Origin: Convolutriloba macropyga | Taxonomy: Eukaryota | DNA: 64,000 nucleotides | Reading direction: 5' to 3' | Assembly (NCBI RefSeq): GCF_964194025.1 | Contig: NC_134474.1 | Span: 20,026,001 to 20,090,000, forward strand | Shown: piece by piece, positions 49,260 through 64,000 of the stretch | Layout: the number at the start of each line of letters is the position of its first letter | How positions within the stretch are numbered: position 1 is the stretch's first letter | Notes under the pieces: model-generated | Databases searched by the model: none | What the model saw: the letters and a program-made list of their open reading frames with translations, nothing else | What the model was told of the DNA's origin: nothing | Made by a program: the position numbers and the translations under genes

Positions 49260-50320
49260 TGTTAATGCTAGAGATTAACTTCTTACGTTTATTGTGTTTT
49301 ACCGCCTTTTGTAAGTTGATTTGTTTTCCAAAAGTTGTAACGAAAAGTCATGATGATGAAATGTTGTAAAACCGGAAATGATACTCTTACTTGAATTGTG
49401 TAATCTGAAACAAAACATGAGCAACCAAACTAATTGAAACTTAAAGCTAAGACTCAAGACAGATAACGACCTATCACCCTTCCCAATGCGGACCAGCGGA
49501 ATCATGTGTTAAACGAGCTCTTCTTTTGAACCTCGGCTCCGCAAAACTCACCCCAGATGTCTTTGCCACGATCGTCAGTGAAGCCGAGTGTCTTGTCAAC
49601 TCGCGTCCACTCACTCACGTGAGAAGCAACCACGAAGACGACAACCCACTTACACCAAACCACTTCTTGCTTGGAAGGCCCTTCTGCAATGTTCCTGGAG
49701 CCGTTTTCAACTAGACACTTACCTTGAAGTGTTCGGCGTGGACGCAGGTGAAGCAGAGACTTCAGCAGATTTGGAAGAGGCTGCTAACCGAGTATGTTCC
49801 TTCGCTGAACAAACGACAGAAGTGGACGTCTTGTGAAGCAGCTTTGGAAGTGGATGATGTTGTCTGGCTTCTTGAAGAGTTTACACCAAGAGGAATCTGG
49901 CCGCTGGGACGAGTCACACGGACTTTCACCGGCCCCGACAACATAGCTAGGTCATGCGAGGTTAAGACCGCTTTAGGCAGATTAAACAGACCAGCAGTAA
50001 AACTTATGCATGTCTACCCCAAACCCACAACCAGGTTAGGGTTAGGTTTTGTGGGCCCGGAGGATGTTAATGCTAGAGATTACCTTCTTACGTTTATTGT
50101 GTTTTACCGCCTTTTGTAAGTTGATTTGTTTTCCAAAAGTTGTAACGAAAAGTCATGATGATGAAATGTTGTAAAACCGGAAATGATACTCTTGCTTGAA
50201 TTGTGTAACCTGAAACAAAACATGAGCAACCAAACTAATTGAAACTTAAAGCTAAGACTCAAGACAGATAACGACCTATCACCCTTCCCAATGCGGACCA
50301 GCGGAATCATGGCGTTATCA
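49260..50320 (+). mobile_element. Internally deleted BEL/Pao LTR retrotransposon (1061 bp) with 5-bp TSD GCATT
   Basis: The 5' LTR is 49260-49506 (last 9 nt lost) and the 3' LTR is 50065-50320 (TGTTAA...TTATCA), with 3 mismatches seen. GCATT occurs at 49255-49259 and 50321-50325. The internal part reads [23 protein letters not shown] and WKRLLTEYVPSL..R.KW..W.LGRV..GPD...R..EVKT..RPAVKL, the BEL integrase C-terminus (DUF5641-type). A PPT-like GGGCCCGGAGGA precedes the 3' LTR. Confidence 0.93.
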
Positions 50321-55560: not shown

Positions 55561-55989
55561 CTGATACTTGACATTTTCTATTTTTAAAAATTAGTATTCA
55601 ATTTTCAATTTTTGCTGATTTTGAATCAATATTGCAATAGTTTCAGAGTAATACTTAGGACAGCACCAGATTTTCGTTTACGATGGTATCAATTTACGGT
55701 TTTTCCGAAGGGTGCCGGCCCACGGAGTTTTTCAGACCAATTAACTCTTATTGAAAATAACTCAAATTTATGTTGGATTTTTGAACAGTCGATTTGAACA
55801 ATACGAAATGCTTTATGAAAAGGTAGTGCAGGTGAGGCCCTGGACCAGCCAAAATTCACCCAGTGTCAGCGAGGGCAATTCTAATTCAGCTTTTAAACTG
55901 AAAAAAAACCTCAACAGGTGATTTGGAATTAACTGAACAATTCTTTTAGAAAGCGGTTTTTTCCGTGTCCCGTTTTCATAATTTAACAG

Positions 55990-58900
55990 CCTCTTAGGAA
56001 ATTATCCAATTTTAATTGAATTCCTGATTTCGGATTGCTTTAAATTTTGCATTCTACCTGTGAGTGTCACATGTATGTGAAAAGAGACATTTTAAAACCC
56101 TTATGTTTCAAGGTGAAAATTTTAGTTTCAAAAATAATTTATTACCTGATTGATGGCTGACACAAGTTTGATAGGAAAAAAAAGAAAGAACGTCTTAAGT
56201 CTAAAACCAAAAAAAGATAGTCTTGAGATAAATACCAAAGAATGGAAACGTCTCGAGTTCGAGAGCAGAAAATAGAAATAGATAAAAACTTGTCTTCTGC
56301 TCAAGACCAAAAAAGGGGAAATCTTGAGTTCAAAACTGAAAAAATTGAGAAACTTCAGAAGCAAGAAAGGTTTGTTTTTCAATATAACTGGCAACAAATT
56401 TGTGAATTATGTTTACTATATGCCAAAATTGTGGAAAGTTAATCAAGAGATTTTCCCGGTAGTGTATCGAGTGGAATCTTGTCTTTCGCAGACTTGGAAG
56501 TTGTTTATGCTAGAATTTCGGGTGTCCGCCAATATTTGGTCCTGAGCTCTTCAGACTGAAGTGGAACTGCGAAGCCAGTGCGCGCAATTACGATCAGAAA
56601 TTCAGTTTAAAAATTAATATATTGTCCGATTTATGGCTGACACAAGTTTGATAAGTAATAAAAAAAGGAGTCAAAACAAAAAGCAAGGTAGTCTTGAGAT
56701 CAAGACCAGAGAATCGAAACTCCTCGAGTTCAAGAACAAAAAAGAACAAAAAAGTCTGTCTTGAGTTCATGAACAAAAAATATATTGATTTCAGGACTGC
56801 AAATATTGAGAAACTTGTACTATATTCCAGAAATGTAGAAAATTGTTTCCGAGATTTTCCCGGAGTGTACCCAGGGGAATCTTTTTTTCGCAGTCTTGGA
56901 GGCCGTCTACGCTAAAACTTCTGTTGGCCTCTAATAATCGGTCCCGAGCTGTTCAGACTGAAGTGGAACTGCGAAGCCAGTGTACGCAATTGGAGAAGTT
57001 GAAGAAAACAAGCCCTATACTTCAAAAAGACCTCGTCGACCTTCAACAAAAGCTGGATAACCTTTATGACAAGTCTAAAGAGGCAGAAAAGGAAACATTG
57101 GGCAAATTGAGCGTCCGATGTGAGGCGCTACGTGATATTTTAAAGACAGCAGCAGCAGGCCGAAATGCTGGACAGGAGCAGTCCGTCCTTTTATTGAATT
57201 AATAATTAGCCAAATTAAAAGTCAATGCTGCTAAAAAGTGACAAAAACACCGAACAATTGCAAAGGCGAATGAGCATTTGGAATCAGAGCTTCAGCAGCT
57301 GGAAAACTACAACCATTACTTGACCAACGAAAGCAGACGAAAAGATACTGTCATTGATCGACAAAAGAATTTTCCCAAAAAACTAGAAAGACAAAATAAA
57401 GCCACTGAGAAATTTTTGTTCGAGATTCAAAACAAAAACAAAAACAATCGGCCCGCTATGTTATATGAGATTTTGGACAAAGTAGAAAGTTATGCTTCAG
57501 AAAATCAGATCAAGAAACACTACCACAAAACTGAGCCTGTTAACACACCCTGATGCTGGTGGAGACGAAGAATTCATAAGGACCCTAAACCGGGCATGAC
57601 AAAAATTGTCAAATAATGCGGCGTGAGAATCGTACAATATGTTTTGGCTTGACGAAGCACAGAAAGTTATGATCGATGAAAATAGATTTTTAATTTTTTC
57701 ATATGAAACTACAAACTCTTCGTTTAGTAAGACGCTCCAATAACAGACTTGAAAGAAACTATTGTGTGATTTCGGATTGCTTAAAATTTTATCTTCTACC
57801 TCTGAGTGCCACACGTTTATAACAAGACATATATTAAAAACCTTTGGTTTCACGATCAGAAAATCAGTTTAAAATTCATATTGTCATCCCATTTATGGCT
57901 GACACAGGTCTGATAGGTAATGAAAAAGATGTCCAAAACAAAAAGCTATGTAGTCTCGAGATCAGGATCAAAGAACCAACACTTCTCAAGTTGAAGAACA
58001 AAACAAAAAAATGAAAAAAAATTGTATTGAGCTTAAGATCAAAAAAAATACTGAGATCAGGACTGCAAATCATGAAAAACTTAAGAAGCAAAAACAGTTT
58101 TTTTTTCAATATAGTAAGCAACGAGGTCCCACGGTTTTGTGAATACCTGTACTATATCCCAGAAATGTAGAAAATTATTTCCGAGATTTTCCCGGAGTGT
58201 ACCCAGTGGAATCTTGTTTTTCGCGGTCTCGGAAGTTGCCTACATTAGAACTTCTTTTGGCCTCTAATATTCGGTCCCGAGCTGTTCAGACTGAAATGGA
58301 ACTGCAAAGCCAGTGCACTTAATTAGAAAATTTGAAGAATACAAACTCTCTACTTCATAAAGACCTCGTTGAGCTGCCAAAAAAGAGATAACCTGTGTGA
58401 GATGGCCTAGGAGGCAACAAAGCAAGCATTAGGCAATTTGAGCGCCAAGTGTGAGGCTCTACGAGATAATTTAAAGGCAGCATTAGCAGGCAGAAATGCT
58501 GAACAGGAGCAGTCCGTCGGTTTATTGAATTAATAATTAGCCAAAATAATATCAATGCTGCTAAAAAGGGCAAAATCACCGAGAAAAAGCAAAAGGTGAA
58601 AGAGCAATTGGAGTAAGAGCTTCAACAACTGGAAATCTACAACCCATGCTTTGCCAACAAAAGCCGACGAAACGATACTGTCATTGATCGACAAAAGAAT
58701 TTTCCTAAGAACTAGAAGGACAAAACAAAGGCCGCTGAGAAATTTCTGTTCGAGATTTGAAACAAAAACAAAGGAATCGACCTGCTACGTTTAATGAGAT
58801 TTTCTAAATAGTAAAAAATTAAGCTTCAAAAAATTAGATCAAGAAACACTACCTTATACTGAGCCGGTTAACACACCTTGATACTGGCGGAGACGAAGAA

Positions 58901-61900
58901 TTCATCAGGACCCTAAACTGGGCAGTCACAAAAATTGACAAATGATGCGGCCCGAGAAGCGTACAACATATTTGGGCTTGACGAAGCAGGGAAAGGTATG
59001 GTCGATGAAAATGGATATTTAAACTTTTCATATGAAAGTACAAACTCATCGTTTAGTAAGACGCTCAAATAACAGAATTGAAAGAAACTATTGTGTGATT
59101 TTGGATTGCTTAAATTTTTACCTTCTACCTCTGAGTGCCACACGTTTATAATAAGACATATATTAAAAACCTTGGGTTTCAAGATCAGAAAATCAGTGTA
59201 AAATTTAAATTATCGCCCAATATATGGCTGACACAGGTCTGATAATTAATAAAAAAAATGAGTCCAAAACCAAAAGCAATGTAGTCTTTAGATCAAAACC
59301 AAAGAACCGAAACTTCTCGAGTTCAAGAACAAAACAAAAGAATCAAAAAATTTTGTTATGAGCTTAAGATCAAAAAAAATATTGGGATCAGGATTGCAAA
59401 TAATGAAAAATTTAAGAAGCAAAAATTGTTTATTTTTCAATATAATAGGCAACGAGGTCCCACAGTTTTGAGAATATGTGTACTATATTCCAGAAATGTA
59501 GAAAATTATTTCCGAGATTTTCCCGGAGTGTACCCATTGGAATCTTGTCTTTCGCGGTCTCGGAATTTGTCTACGCTAGAACTTCTCTTGGCCTCTAATA
59601 GTCGGTCTTGAGCTTTTCAGGCTGAAGTGGAACTGCAAAGCCAGTGAACGCAATTAGAGAAAATGAAGAAAACGAGCCCTTTACTTCAAAAAGACCTCGT
59701 CGACCTTCAACAAAAGCTGGATAACCTTTTTGATAAGGCTAAAGAGGCAACAAAAGAAGCATTGGGCAAATTGAGCGTCCGATGTGAGGCGCTACAAGAT
59801 ATTTTAAAGGCAGCAGCAGCAGGCAGAAATGCTGAAGAGGAGCAGTCCGTCGGTTTATTGAATTAATAATGAGCCAAAATAAAAGTCAATGCTGCAAAAA
59901 AGGAAGAAACCACCGCGAAAAATGCAAAAGGCGAATGAGCAATTGGAGTAAGAGCTTCAGCAACTGGAAATCTACAACCCTTTCTTTGCCAACAAAAGCC
60001 GACGTAACAATACTGTCATTGATCGACAAAAAATTCTCCTATAAACTAGAAGGACAAACAAACAAAGGCCACTGAGAAATTTCTGTTCGAGATTTGAAAC
60101 AATAACAAAAAGAATCGACCTGCTATGTTTAATGAGATTTTGTAAAATGTAAAAAATTAAGCTTCAGAAAATTAGATCAAGAAACACTACCATATACTGA
60201 GCCGGTTAACACACCGTGATGCTGGCGGAGACAAAGAATTCATCAGGACCCTAAACTGGGCATCACAAAAATTGACAAATGATGCGGCCCGAGAAGCGTA
60301 CAACAAATTTGGGCTTGACGAAGCAGGGAAAGGTATGATCGATGAAAATATATATTTAAACTTTTCATATGAAAGTACAAACTCTTCGTTTAGTAAGACG
60401 CTCAAATAACAGACTTGAAAGAAACTATTGTGTGATTTCGGATTGCTTAAAATTTTACCTTCTACCTCTGAGTGCCACACGTTTATAACAAGACATATAT
60501 TAAAAACCTTGGGTTTCACGATCAGAAAATCAGTTTAAGATTTAAATTAGTACCCGATTTATGGCTGACAAAGGTTTGATATGTAATAAAAAAGGAGTCC
60601 AAAACCAAAAACAATGAAGTCTTGAGATCAAAACCAAAGAATCGAAACTTCCCGATTGCAAGAACAAAACAAAAGGATGAAAAAATTTTGTCTTGAGCTT
60701 AAGATCAAAAAAAATATTGAGATCAGGACTGCAAAAAACGAAAAACTTAAGTAGCAAAAACAGTTTATTTTTTAATATAGTAAGCAACGAGGTCCCACGG
60801 TTTTGTGAATACGTGTACTATATTCCAGAAATGTAGAAAATTATTTCCGAGATTTTCCCGGAGTGTACCCAGGGGAATCTTTTTTTTTGCCGTCTTGGAG
60901 GCTGTCTACGCTAAAACTTGTGTTGGCCTCTAATAATCGGTCCCGAGCTGTTTAGACTGAAGTGGAACTGCGAAGCCAGTGTACGCAATTGGAGAAGTCG
61001 AAGAAAACAAGACCTTTACTTCAAAAAGACCTCGTCGACCTTCAACAAAAGCTGGATAACCTTTATGACAAGTCTAAAGAGGCAGAAAATGAAACATTGG
61101 GCAAATTGAGCGTCCGATGTGAGGCGCTACGTGATATTTTAAAGGCAGCAGCAGCAGGCAGAAATGCTGAAGAGGAGCAGTCCGTCGGTTTATTCAATTA
61201 ATATTGAGCCAAAATAAAAGTCAATGCTGCAAAAAAGGGGCGAAACCACCGCGAAAAATGCAAAAGGCGAATGATCAATTGGAGTAAGAGCTTCAGCAAC
61301 TGGAAATCTAGAACCATTGCTTTGCCAACAAAAGCCGACGAAACGATACTGTCACTGATCGACAAAAAAATTCTCCTATAAACTAGAAGGACAAACAAAC
61401 AAAGGCCACTGAGAAATTTCTGTTCGAGATTCAAAACAAAAACAAAAATAATCGGACTAGTATGTTACATCAGATTTTGTAAAAAGTAAAAAATTATGCT
61501 TCAGAAAAATAGATCAAGAAACACTACCACAAACTGAGCCTGTTAACACACCCTGATGCTGGTGGAGACGAAGAATTCATTAGGACCCTAAACCGGGCAT
61601 GACAAAAATTGTCAAATGATGCGGCGTGAGAATCGTACAACATGTTTTGGCTGGACAAAGCACAGAAAGTTATGATCGATGAAAATAGATTTTTAATTTT
61701 TTCATATGAAACTACAAACTCTTCGTTTAGTAAGACGCTCAAATAACAGAATTGAAAGAAACTATTGTGTGATTTCGGATTGCTTAAAATTTTACCTTCT
61801 ACCTCTGAGTGCCACACGTTTATAACAAGACATATATTAAAAACCTTGGGTTTCACGATCAGAAAATCAGTTTAGGATTGAATTATTACCCGATTTATGG

Positions 61901-64000
61901 CTGACACAGGCTATAGCTGTTCAGGCTGAAGTGGAACTGCAAAACCAGTGCACGCAATTAGAGAAGTCGAAGAAAACAAGCCCTTTACTTCAAAAAGACC
62001 TTGTCGACCTTCAACAAAAGCTGGATAACCTTTTTGACAATGCTAAAGAGGCAACAAAGGAAGCATTGGGCAAATTGAGCGTCCGATGTGAGGCGCTACG
62101 TGATATTTTAAAGGCAGCAGCAGCAAGCAGAAATGCTGAAGAGGAGCAGTCCGTCGGTTTATTGAATTAATAATGAGCCAAAATAAAAGTCAATGCTGCA
62201 AAAAAGGAAGAAACCACCGCGAAAAATGCAAAAGGCGAATAAGCAAATGGAGTAATCGACCTGCTATGTTTAATGATATTTTGTAAAAAGTAAAAAATTA
62301 AGCTTCAGAAAATTAGATCAAGAAACACTACCACATACTGAGCCGGTTAACACACCTTGATACTGGCGGAGACAAAGAATTCATCAGGACCCTAAACTGG
62401 GCATCACAAAATTTGGCAAATGATGCGGCGTGAGAAGCGTACAACATGTTTGGGCTTGACGAAGCAGAGAAAGTTATGATCGATGAAACTAGATTTTTAA
62501 TCTTTTCATATGAAAGTACAAACTCTTCGTTTAGTAAGACGCTCAAATAACAGAATTGAAATAAACTATTGGGTGATTTTGGATTGCTTAATATTTTACA
62601 TTCTATCTCTGAATGCCACACGTTTATAACAAGACATATATTAAAAACCTTGGGTTTCACGATCAGAAAATCAGTTTAGGATTAAATTATTACCCGATTT
62701 ATGGCTGACACAGGCTTGAGAAGTAATATAAAAAGGAGTCCAAAACCAAAAGCAGTGTAGTCTTGAGATCAAACTAAAGAATCGAAATTTTTCGAGTGCT
62801 AGAACAAAACAAAAAAATGAAAAAAATTTGTCTTGAGCTTAAGATAAAAAAAAATAATGAGATCAGGACTGCAAATAATGAAAAACTTAATAATCAACAA
62901 TTGTTTATTTTTCAATATAGTAAGCAACGAGGTCCCAAGGTTTTGTGAATATGTGTACTATATTCCAGAAATGTAGAAAATTATTTCCGAGATTTTCCCG
63001 GAGTGTACCCATTGGAATCTTGTCTTTCGCGGTCTCGGAAGTTGTCTACGCTAGAACTTCTGTTGGCCTCTAATAATCGGTCCCGAGCTGTTCAGGCTGA
63101 AGTTGAACTGCGAAGCCAGTGCACGCAATTAAAAAAGTCGAAGAAAAAAAAGCCCTTTACTTCAAAAACACATCGTCGACCTTCAACAAAAGCTGGATAA
63201 CCTTTTGACAAGGCTAAAGAGGCAACAAAGGAAGCATTGGGCAAGTTGAGCGTCCGATGTGAGGCGCTAGGTGATATTTTAAAGGCAGCAGCAGATAGAA
63301 ATGATAAAGAGGAGCAATCCGTTGGTTTATTGAATTAATAAGGAGCCAAAAAAAGTCAATGCTGCAAAAATGCAAAAGGCGATTGAGCAATTGGAGTAAG
63401 AGCTCCAGCAATGGGATATCTACAACCATTGCTTTGCCAACAAAAGCCGACGAAACGATACTGTCATTGATCGACATAAAAATTCTCCTATAAACTAGAA
63501 AGACAAATAGACAAAGCCACTGAGAAATTTCTGTTCGAGATTCAAAACAAAAACAAAAAGAATCGGCCTAGTATGTTACATCAGATTTTGTAAAAAGTAA
63601 AAAATAATGATTCAAAAAATTAGATCAAGAAACACTACCACAAACTGAGCCTGTTAACACACCCTGATGCCGGTGGAGACGAAGAATTCATTAGGACACT
63701 AAACCGGGCACGACAAAAATTGTCAAATGATGCGGCGTGAGAAGCGTACAACATGTTTGGGCTTGACGAAGCAGAGAAAGTTATGATCGATGAAACTAGA
63801 ATTTGAAACTTTTCATATGAAAGTACAAACTCTTCGTTTAGTAAGACGCTCAAATAACAGACTTGAGAGAATCTATTGAGTGATTTGGATTGCTTAAAAT
63901 TTTACTCTTTACCTGTGAGTGCCACACGCATATATCAAGAGATATGAAGAGATGAAAAGTGATATTTAATTTCTTCCTATGAAAGTAAAAATTTTTCGTT
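55990..64000 (+). repeat. Tandem array of about 1.33-kb units (7 unit starts; runs to or beyond the window edge)
   Basis: The anchor ATGGCTGACA occurs at 56153, 56633, 57895, 59224, 60561, 61897 and 62701 (spacings 480, 1262, 1329, 1337, 1336, 804). The shorter units carry internal deletions. Confidence 0.97.
56633..63810 (+). pseudogene. Six disrupted copies of a coiled-coil + C-terminal J-domain (DnaJ/Hsp40-type) coding sequence
   Basis: The consensus 3' part is MLYEILDKVENYASENQIKKHYHKLSLLTHPDAGGDEEFIRTLNRAxQKLSNDAAREAYNMFGLDEAEKVM, matching J-domain helices I-IV with HPD. It is preceded by heptad-rich LQKDLVDLQQKLDNL...LESELQQLE. H-x-D codons start at 57546 (HPD), 58874 (HLD), 60212 (HRD), 61549 (HPD), 62353 (HLD) and 63660 (HPD). 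Every copy has stops or frameshifts. Confidence 0.85.

Follow-up and report, generated by a model that had tools for sequence, protein, structure and literature searches.

Introduction

Retrotransposons with long terminal repeats (LTRs) are thought to borrow host chaperones. Some viruses encode J domains themselves, and the J-domain protein of T4-like phage is reportedly named Rki. The J domains described from viruses belong to polyomavirus T antigens, T4-like phage and the polyproteins of 11 RNA-virus families (PMC13254874; bioRxiv 10.1101/2022.02.15.480533; PMC3486835); stimulation of Hsp70 requires the HPD motif, and the domains let viruses direct this chaperone (PMC13254874). Here, a tandem array in a 64,000-nucleotide stretch of the Convolutriloba macropyga genome (NC_134474.1, positions 20,026,001 to 20,090,000, forward strand; hereafter the window) was analysed, together with its apparent parent, a dispersed env-bearing Ty3/Gypsy LTR retrotransposon whose fourth open reading frame (ORF4) encodes a protein with a C-terminal J domain.

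The metazoan env-carrying Ty3/gypsy 'errantiviruses' (Chary and Hayashi, PMC13524379) have the order LTR-gag-pol-env, multi-copy young insertions and a viral-fusion-related env in common with the present element, to which a fourth ORF with a J domain is added. In the main text of that study there is no occurrence of DnaJ, J-domain, chaperone or accessory, and its seven supplementary files contain none of DnaJ, J-domain, ORF4 or three loop motifs. CERV of the C. elegans element Cer1 (PMC10309623) is likewise a Ty3/Gypsy accessory protein encoded 3' of pol; it is made from spliced RNA and serves the life cycle. Unlike ORF4, CERV replaces env and has other domains, and DnaJ occurs 0 times in the accessible text of PMC10309623. 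The extra ORF3s of bdelloid rotifer LTR elements encode a GDSL esterase, a DEDDy nuclease and a coiled coil (PMC5408684). They resemble ORF4 as captured non-envelope genes ahead of the 3' LTR, whereas they are ORF3 rather than post-env genes and have other domains; the accessible text of PMC5408684 contains DnaJ 0 times. A term search of the available parts of PMC9004415, PMC9940879, PMC12440569 and PMC2678813 gave nothing relevant.

With the viral J proteins, ORF4 has in common that a genetic parasite encodes an HPD J domain, which in the case of ORF4 would likewise serve to exploit the Hsp70 of the host. It differs from them in its reverse-transcribing carrier and in the position of its J domain, which stands at the C terminus and is joined to a small barrel and a long coil. 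The literature searched, which included few subscription journals and neither bioRxiv supplements nor Repbase, contained no report of a J domain in an LTR retrotransposon. The J-domain fourth ORF is a cargo for which no precedent was found in LTR elements, while accessory Ty3/Gypsy ORFs and viral J domains are already known.

Composition and decay of the array

The array almost certainly consists of decayed tandem copies of the 3'-terminal part of a Ty3/Gypsy LTR element with env, and in itself it is ordinary debris. Each unit consists of the env-ORF4 spacer, ORF4, the 3' untranslated region (3' UTR) and LTR bases 1-118 of a dispersed family (family A) at 72-74% identity; outside the array, the best-matching copy reaches 76%. 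The polypurine tract is absent from the internal units and present in the terminal unit, ahead of a longer LTR piece.

A 1.33-kb tandem array had been proposed by a model from the letters of the window (the sequence-only reading), and this periodicity was reproduced: the array starts near 56025 with unit periods of 1329, 1337 and 1337 bp. An anchor motif lies at 57767, 59096, 60433 and 61770, and the next one, after a deleted unit, at 62574. The units are about 83-95% identical to each other. Eight J-motif sites span 57542-68271 (window numbering, next contig stretch included), the last two being a ~99% copy of the preceding two (remnants 5-6). The total length is about 13 kb, with the end about 5 kb past the window edge. 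With eight J sites, this length and no outside copy closer than 76%, the array does not qualify as the macrosatellite that had been suggested.

Each unit is homologous to an intronless coiled-coil and J-domain ORF, as had been read from it, but the units are not genes: the six near-complete ones contain 7-12 stops and 6-9 frameshifting indels apiece. The stops at codons 28, 149 and 210 are common to all six and the start codon is absent from every one, so the founder unit was already dead before the amplification. The expected HPD motif was found at four of the eight J sites, with HLD at three and HRD at one. The longest in-frame J piece scored 13.9 bits against Pfam DnaJ, under the cut-off of 27.8, where a complete J domain had been described for each unit, and the gap between coding remnants measured 456-458 bp instead of about 200 bp. 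A non-standard genetic code was rejected as the source of the stops: intact copies are open under the standard code, and the stops of old copies lie at differing positions.

The left junction (55791-56579) was bridged by contigs from three of four public runs with 2-6 differences, and the fourth run covered 55791-56349. These runs all come from one study and may share source material with the assembly; the contigs argue only against an assembly error at the left array end. No gag, pol or env of the parent was detected by blastn and tblastn in the window, the 10 kb upstream and the 20 kb downstream.

The six array units formed one clade (Shimodaira-Hasegawa-like approximate likelihood ratio test (SH-aLRT) 100) apart from the young copies, from the old dispersed ones and from an independent array on C10. 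Tandem amplification of a host J-protein family, the first of two origins offered by the sequence-only reading, would agree with the tandem units and with HPD at four of eight sites. We give this explanation practically no credence: the units hold LTR sequence, are broken from a founder that was already dead, and group with the retroelement ORF4 and not with 13 host J exons. The second proposed origin, a compact gene carried by a virus or transposon, was borne out. Of 794 candidates that one J piece yielded in the 1.18-Gb genome, 150 were scored as matches, spread over many contigs, and the ORF4 gene is a mobile-element cargo with at least 150 genome-wide matches. The carriers that had been named, Polinton, Helentron or CACTA, were not those observed, the flanks in the examined copies being gag, pol, env and LTRs.

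The parent element

Intact copies, which the sequence-only reading had recommended to look for together with mobile-element genes in their flanks, were found dispersed in the genome. Family A copies contain an open frame of 308 codons, 285 from the first ATG, matching Pfam DnaJ with an E-value of 2e-16. In 13 stretches of 20 kb, picked for long open frames, the order LTR-env-ORF4-LTR was present in 11; one stretch was without the 3' LTR and one was a tandem of partial copies. The dispersed element is about 9.8 kb long and organised as LTR-gag-pol-env-ORF4-LTR. Seven of ten measured copies were 9.7-10.0 kb, and the rest 7.1, 8.8 and 12.0 kb. The LTRs are about 430 bp with a within-copy pair identity of 93-99.8% (10 copies). 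Target duplications of 4 bp were determined by script for 8 of 11 copies and by eye for a ninth, mis-parsed copy; one copy had a mismatch and one had none. A putative primer site starting with TGG follows the 5' LTR, and a purine tract lies ahead of the 3' LTR.

In families A and B (see below) Pfam searches detected a gag with a CCHC zinc knuckle, followed by protease, reverse transcriptase (RT), RNase H and integrase in Ty3/Gypsy order. The best PDB match of pol was Ty3 Gag-Pol (E 7e-103). The env ORFs, 666-688 aa, lie downstream of pol and matched PF24664, which we take to be a class III (gB-like) fusion family, above the cut-off, with 39.9 bits for family A and 54.3 bits for family B. An N-terminal hydrophobic segment was present in env; for a C-terminal anchor of the family A env, no window reached a hydropathy of 1.6. 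A profile of 10 envs gave 0 matches at E 1 against PDB sequences. By its genes, the parent is classified as an env-bearing, errantivirus-like Ty3/Gypsy LTR retrotransposon.

Two further features were recorded. The env-ORF4 spacer (L037:3912-4200) is a minisatellite of ~38-bp units, the number of which differs between copies. At L034 (G000:C3:47.48 Mb) a 2.0-kb mini-element with the order LTR-primer site-ORF4-LTR and a 4-bp target duplication has ORF4 as its sole gene; it could be a post-insertion deletion or a mobilised non-autonomous form.

Formation of the array

The array likely arose from a dead copy of an older subfamily, in which a deletion would have joined the LTR start to the env-ORF4 spacer, whereupon unequal exchange would have multiplied the unit locally. 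Relative to a young copy, the units showed a ratio of nonsynonymous to synonymous divergence (dN/dS) of 0.23-0.31, with divergences of 0.33-0.37 at third codon positions vs 0.17-0.24 at the others. This third-position excess is a signal inherited from the working ancestor. Among the array units the divergence by codon position was near-flat (0.112/0.094/0.121), and the pairwise dN/dS values were 0.44-0.87, with one pair at 1.29; a neutral simulation gave a median of 0.83 and a range of 0.52-1.35.

A comparable case is that of maize CRM1TR and CRM4TR, retrotransposon-derived tandem repeats whose locally amplified monomers consist, as far as the available text describes them, of LTR and adjacent internal Ty3/Gypsy sequence (PMC3648361). 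In contrast to these, the present monomer includes coding sequence that is dead, and the array extends over just ~13 kb.

Other tandem duplications of the ORF4/LTR region were observed at several loci in families A and B. J hits outside the window had a same-strand neighbour within 5 kb in 17 of 142 cases, compared with 8 of 150 for an integrase control (hand count); the excess is modest, and the two hit sets are not age-matched. This recurrence and clustering would be expected if the tandem array itself were functional and supplied either J proteins or RNA that silences the element. Such a role is regarded as highly improbable: the shared stops and the lost start exclude a protein role, an identity of just 72-74% to the young family would limit small-RNA matching, and unrelated tandem duplications are common in the fetched loci.

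Separately, an inverted motif GAGTG...CACTC was noticed just 5' of the polypurine tract, conserved in families A and B (L037:5216, L123:7962, L056:5271). In family A it resembles the LTR start, and it may account for the loss of the tract in the array units.

Domains and predicted structure of ORF4

In the ORF4 protein of 280-285 aa, a predicted SH3/Tudor-like barrel and a coiled coil precede the C-terminal HPD J domain. The Pfam DnaJ scores were 60.4, 50.2 and 42.8 bits for families A, B and C, respectively. HPD was invariant in all 14 aligned J domains, from proteins 25-50% identical. It was also present in 27 of 28 young family A copies, and 19 of the 28 were open for at least 280 codons; this sample is biased to long frames. 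The structure model contains a helix of ~140 residues, whose heptad pattern fits a coiled coil, and the four J helices. The first 55 residues, folded with an alignment, gave a four-stranded barrel with a mean predicted local distance difference test (pLDDT) score of 79.5, and the barrel was unresolved in a single-sequence fold. No hydrophobic segment was detected in ORF4, which indicates that the protein is soluble and would meet cytosolic or nuclear Hsp70. Searches of the ESM Atlas gave low-scoring or no matches.

The best PDB sequence matches of the ORF4 J domain were the J domains of Sis1 and DNAJA1. An assignment to the class A or B J proteins was rejected, the J domain being C-terminal after barrel and coil and not N-terminal; by its architecture ORF4 would be a class C J protein. 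By eye, the barrel might have originated by duplication of the SH3 domain at the C terminus of integrase; this was not supported, the hhalign score being 10.3 vs a shuffled maximum of 17.3.

In all five families inspected (A-E), an AG after a U-rich tract lies shortly 5' of the first ATG of ORF4, and the leader of family A contains a donor-like GTGAGT. These signals suggest that ORF4 may be made from a spliced subgenomic RNA, as for CERV.

Purifying selection on ORF4

Six old dispersed copies were compared with a young family A copy, and the dN/dS of ORF4 was 0.15-0.21 at a synonymous divergence (dS) of 0.76-0.95. The 95% intervals were all below 0.3 in the four copies tested. By region, dN/dS was lowest in the J domain (0.10), followed by the coil (0.18), the barrel (0.27) and the 23 codons that precede the ATG (0.29). 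In family B, values of 0.16-0.32 were obtained in the 12 of 21 pairs whose dS exceeded 0.28. ORF4 is under purifying selection as a maintained gene, and we hold with high confidence that it is a functional protein of the element.

One copy, L056, had an uneven dS relative to young family A: at 0.82, that of ORF4 was about double the values for env (0.37) and for pol (0.32) in this pair, and inside ORF4 a dS of 0.44 for the barrel compares with 1.0 for the coil and J domain. The pattern suggests that the coil-J part was exchanged between subfamilies.

Related families and trees

Families B and C were found by a search with a distant relative. In family B, gag-pol-env is followed, at a distance of about 20 bases, by an ORF4 of 280 aa. 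ORF4 identity among families A, B and C was 25-30%, and that of env between A and B 31%. Other env-bearing families contain J-less fourth ORFs: D (330 aa), E (~400 aa), G (a 611-codon frame) and K (274-284 aa), of which those of D and E have a heptad coil. At three sampled loci, no frame of at least 170 aa followed env.

In the ORF4 of D and E (L111-L122), the head is disordered, and a short beta-rich part is followed by a coil and a basic/serine tail. This ORF4 gave no Pfam match over the cut-off, and no homology of the barrel to it was detected. Family D is represented by ~38 near-identical env matches. A further group (L156, L158, L162, L163, L166-L168) has many copies in which a 274-284-codon ORF comes after a ~900-aa PF24664 fusion-protein ORF; neither of two tested loci of this group had a Ty3-like RT.

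In the RT and integrase trees the J-bearing families were placed together, beside D and E (SH-aLRT 94 and support of 88/83, respectively). A single gain of the J domain is the likely course judging from these sequences; alternatively, the J domain may have been lost in D and E. The 14 ORF4 J domains were united in a single clade (support 100/98) in a tree with 13 host J exons and 21 cellular proteins; it was built from 81 columns after two rows without the motif were dropped, and its bootstrap had not settled. This tree does not place the donor of the ORF4 J domain. The short HPDxGG loop was present in none of the 13 host J exons of the tree and in many cellular proteins, and a search with one cellular protein having this loop gave no closer host gene.

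A representative search gave further relatives with the barrel-coil-J layout, all of them ENA or Logan records. Twelve of these outside relatives were 28-53% identical at most to any locus examined. Searches of the own genome with three of them gave no close copy, and scans of the collections for their DNA context found nothing. The outside relatives probably come from other genomes, and by their sequence they would also be located in retroelements. Two other J-domain genes (L139 and L140) lie on the small contigs C3927 and C486 with a GC content of 0.61 and 0.52 vs ~0.37 for the chromosomes; these contigs possibly belong to another organism in the assembly. The host itself is probably an animal, judging from the top-scoring matches of a ribosomal protein.

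Proposed role of ORF4

ORF4 probably acts through Hsp70, as its J domain would predict. Somewhat more tentatively, we favour the proposal that it brings the Hsp70 of the host to RNA-protein complexes or particles of the element itself; for the target alone, the element's own complex or particle is about an even call. The barrel would provide the target and the coil would oligomerise the protein, both roles being deduced from the domains. The J domain would then trigger the ATP hydrolysis of Hsp70 and remodel the target, in RNA export, particle assembly or uncoating.

The main rival keeps the element and the recruitment of Hsp70 and places the target in the host defence. A Tudor/PWWP-like barrel would dock to proteins of the PIWI pathway or of chromatin silencing, and Hsp70 would dismantle the docked complex, by analogy with SV40 T antigen and Rb-E2F. 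Viral J domains do act on host complexes, in the part of PMC13254874 that was available, and the fold matches of the barrel include Tudor, PWWP, chromo and KOW domains. However, these are level with ribosomal and further SH3-like folds (Z 5-6.5), with no clear winner; there was no match at Z 8 or above (best 6.5) and none by Foldseek at E 0.001. The dN/dS of the barrel gives no sign of fast adaptive change. A target in the host defence is considered rather unlikely, although the present data do not separate it from the element's own particle. The wider statement, that a clade of animal env-bearing retrotransposons encodes an Hsp70-targeting anti-silencing factor with a Tudor-like barrel on the piRNA (PIWI-interacting RNA) or chromatin machinery, is doubtful and slightly less probable again.

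ORF4 could also be a structural or export factor like the J-less ORF4s or CERV, the J domain being a retained helical module or a minor helper. The J-less fourth ORFs of families D, E, G and K, with the heptad coils of D and E, are in accordance with this, and CERV is a spliced accessory protein needed for the export of genomic RNA according to the available text of PMC10309623. The J region is, however, the most constrained part of ORF4, and HPD has not changed across proteins as divergent as those aligned; this explanation was judged distinctly unlikely.

Several observations weigh against the proposal that ORF4 is a maintained protein which recruits Hsp70 to the element's own complexes, and against the history given for the array. 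Comparisons of young with young ORF4 copies gave noisy dN/dS values of 0.45-2.9. Within the array, dN/dS is slightly under the neutral simulation, which is not fully explained. Many young D and E copies have a J-less ORF4, so that the J domain is not needed across the whole clade, and the monophyly of the J-bearing families in the integrase tree is supported by just 88/83. The generic matches of the modelled barrel give a fold class and no function. Finally, the first ATG of family A lies inside the predicted barrel, which makes the true start of ORF4 unsure.

Features of the window and neighbouring sequence

The array features within the window are collected in Table 1. Past the window edge (L021) follow a purine tract with LTR positions 1-314, the ~99% copy of remnants 5-6 and a displaced LTR 3' end. 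A Vps54-like host gene with a single long open frame lies ~4 kb past the array end (L021:8507 to L022:1485). A DUF5641 match, presumably a marker of BEL/Pao elements, was detected at window positions 49715-50119 (E 4e-22).

Table 1. Remnants of the env-bearing Ty3/Gypsy element in the window (window numbering).
Feature	Position	Strand	Basis and remarks
LTR first ~118 bases, left array end	56059..56175	+	Matches LTR positions 1-118 in a dispersed copy of family A at 79.7% identity
Diverged left-end pieces: spacer, ORF4 5' fragment (codons 2-80, 56363-56590), second partial LTR/spacer piece	56176..56816	+	blastn, tblastn
ORF4 remnant 1 (barrel, coil, J)	56800..57683	+	Homology; HPD intact (57546-57554); 7 stops, frameshifts
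3' UTR remnant, LTR start without polypurine tract, A-rich spacer repeats	57684..58085	+	Sequence; same junction in every unit
ORF4 remnant 2	58086..59012	+	Homology; HLD; 10 stops
LTR-start piece	59132..59235	+	75% identity to family A LTR
ORF4 remnant 3	59417..60349	+	Homology; HRD; 12 stops
LTR-start piece	60469..60584	+	Homology
ORF4 remnant 4	60753..61686	+	Homology; HPD intact; 11 stops
LTR-start piece fused to internally deleted ORF4 remnant 5	61806..62487	+	Homology; HLD
LTR-start piece	62610..62719	+	Homology
ORF4 remnant 6	62892..63794	+	Homology; HPD intact; 9 stops
3' UTR of the last unit in the window	63795..64000	+	Homology

Implications

ORF4 copies dominate the DnaJ-domain matches in the present genome and would be mis-annotated as an expansion of host Hsp40. 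Outside insects, env-bearing elements can be 'complex' and possess an accessory gene behind env, one that gag-pol-env screens would miss. If the anti-silencing role were true, ORF4 would correspond, in a retroelement, to polyomavirus T antigen, and an animal LTR element would have a defined protein that counters silencing. The retention of a J protein across families with ORF4s as little as 25-30% identical points to a chaperone-dependent step of the life cycle or to counter-defence. Either is testable with one small soluble protein, for which the J-less ORF4s of the sister families are a natural comparison.

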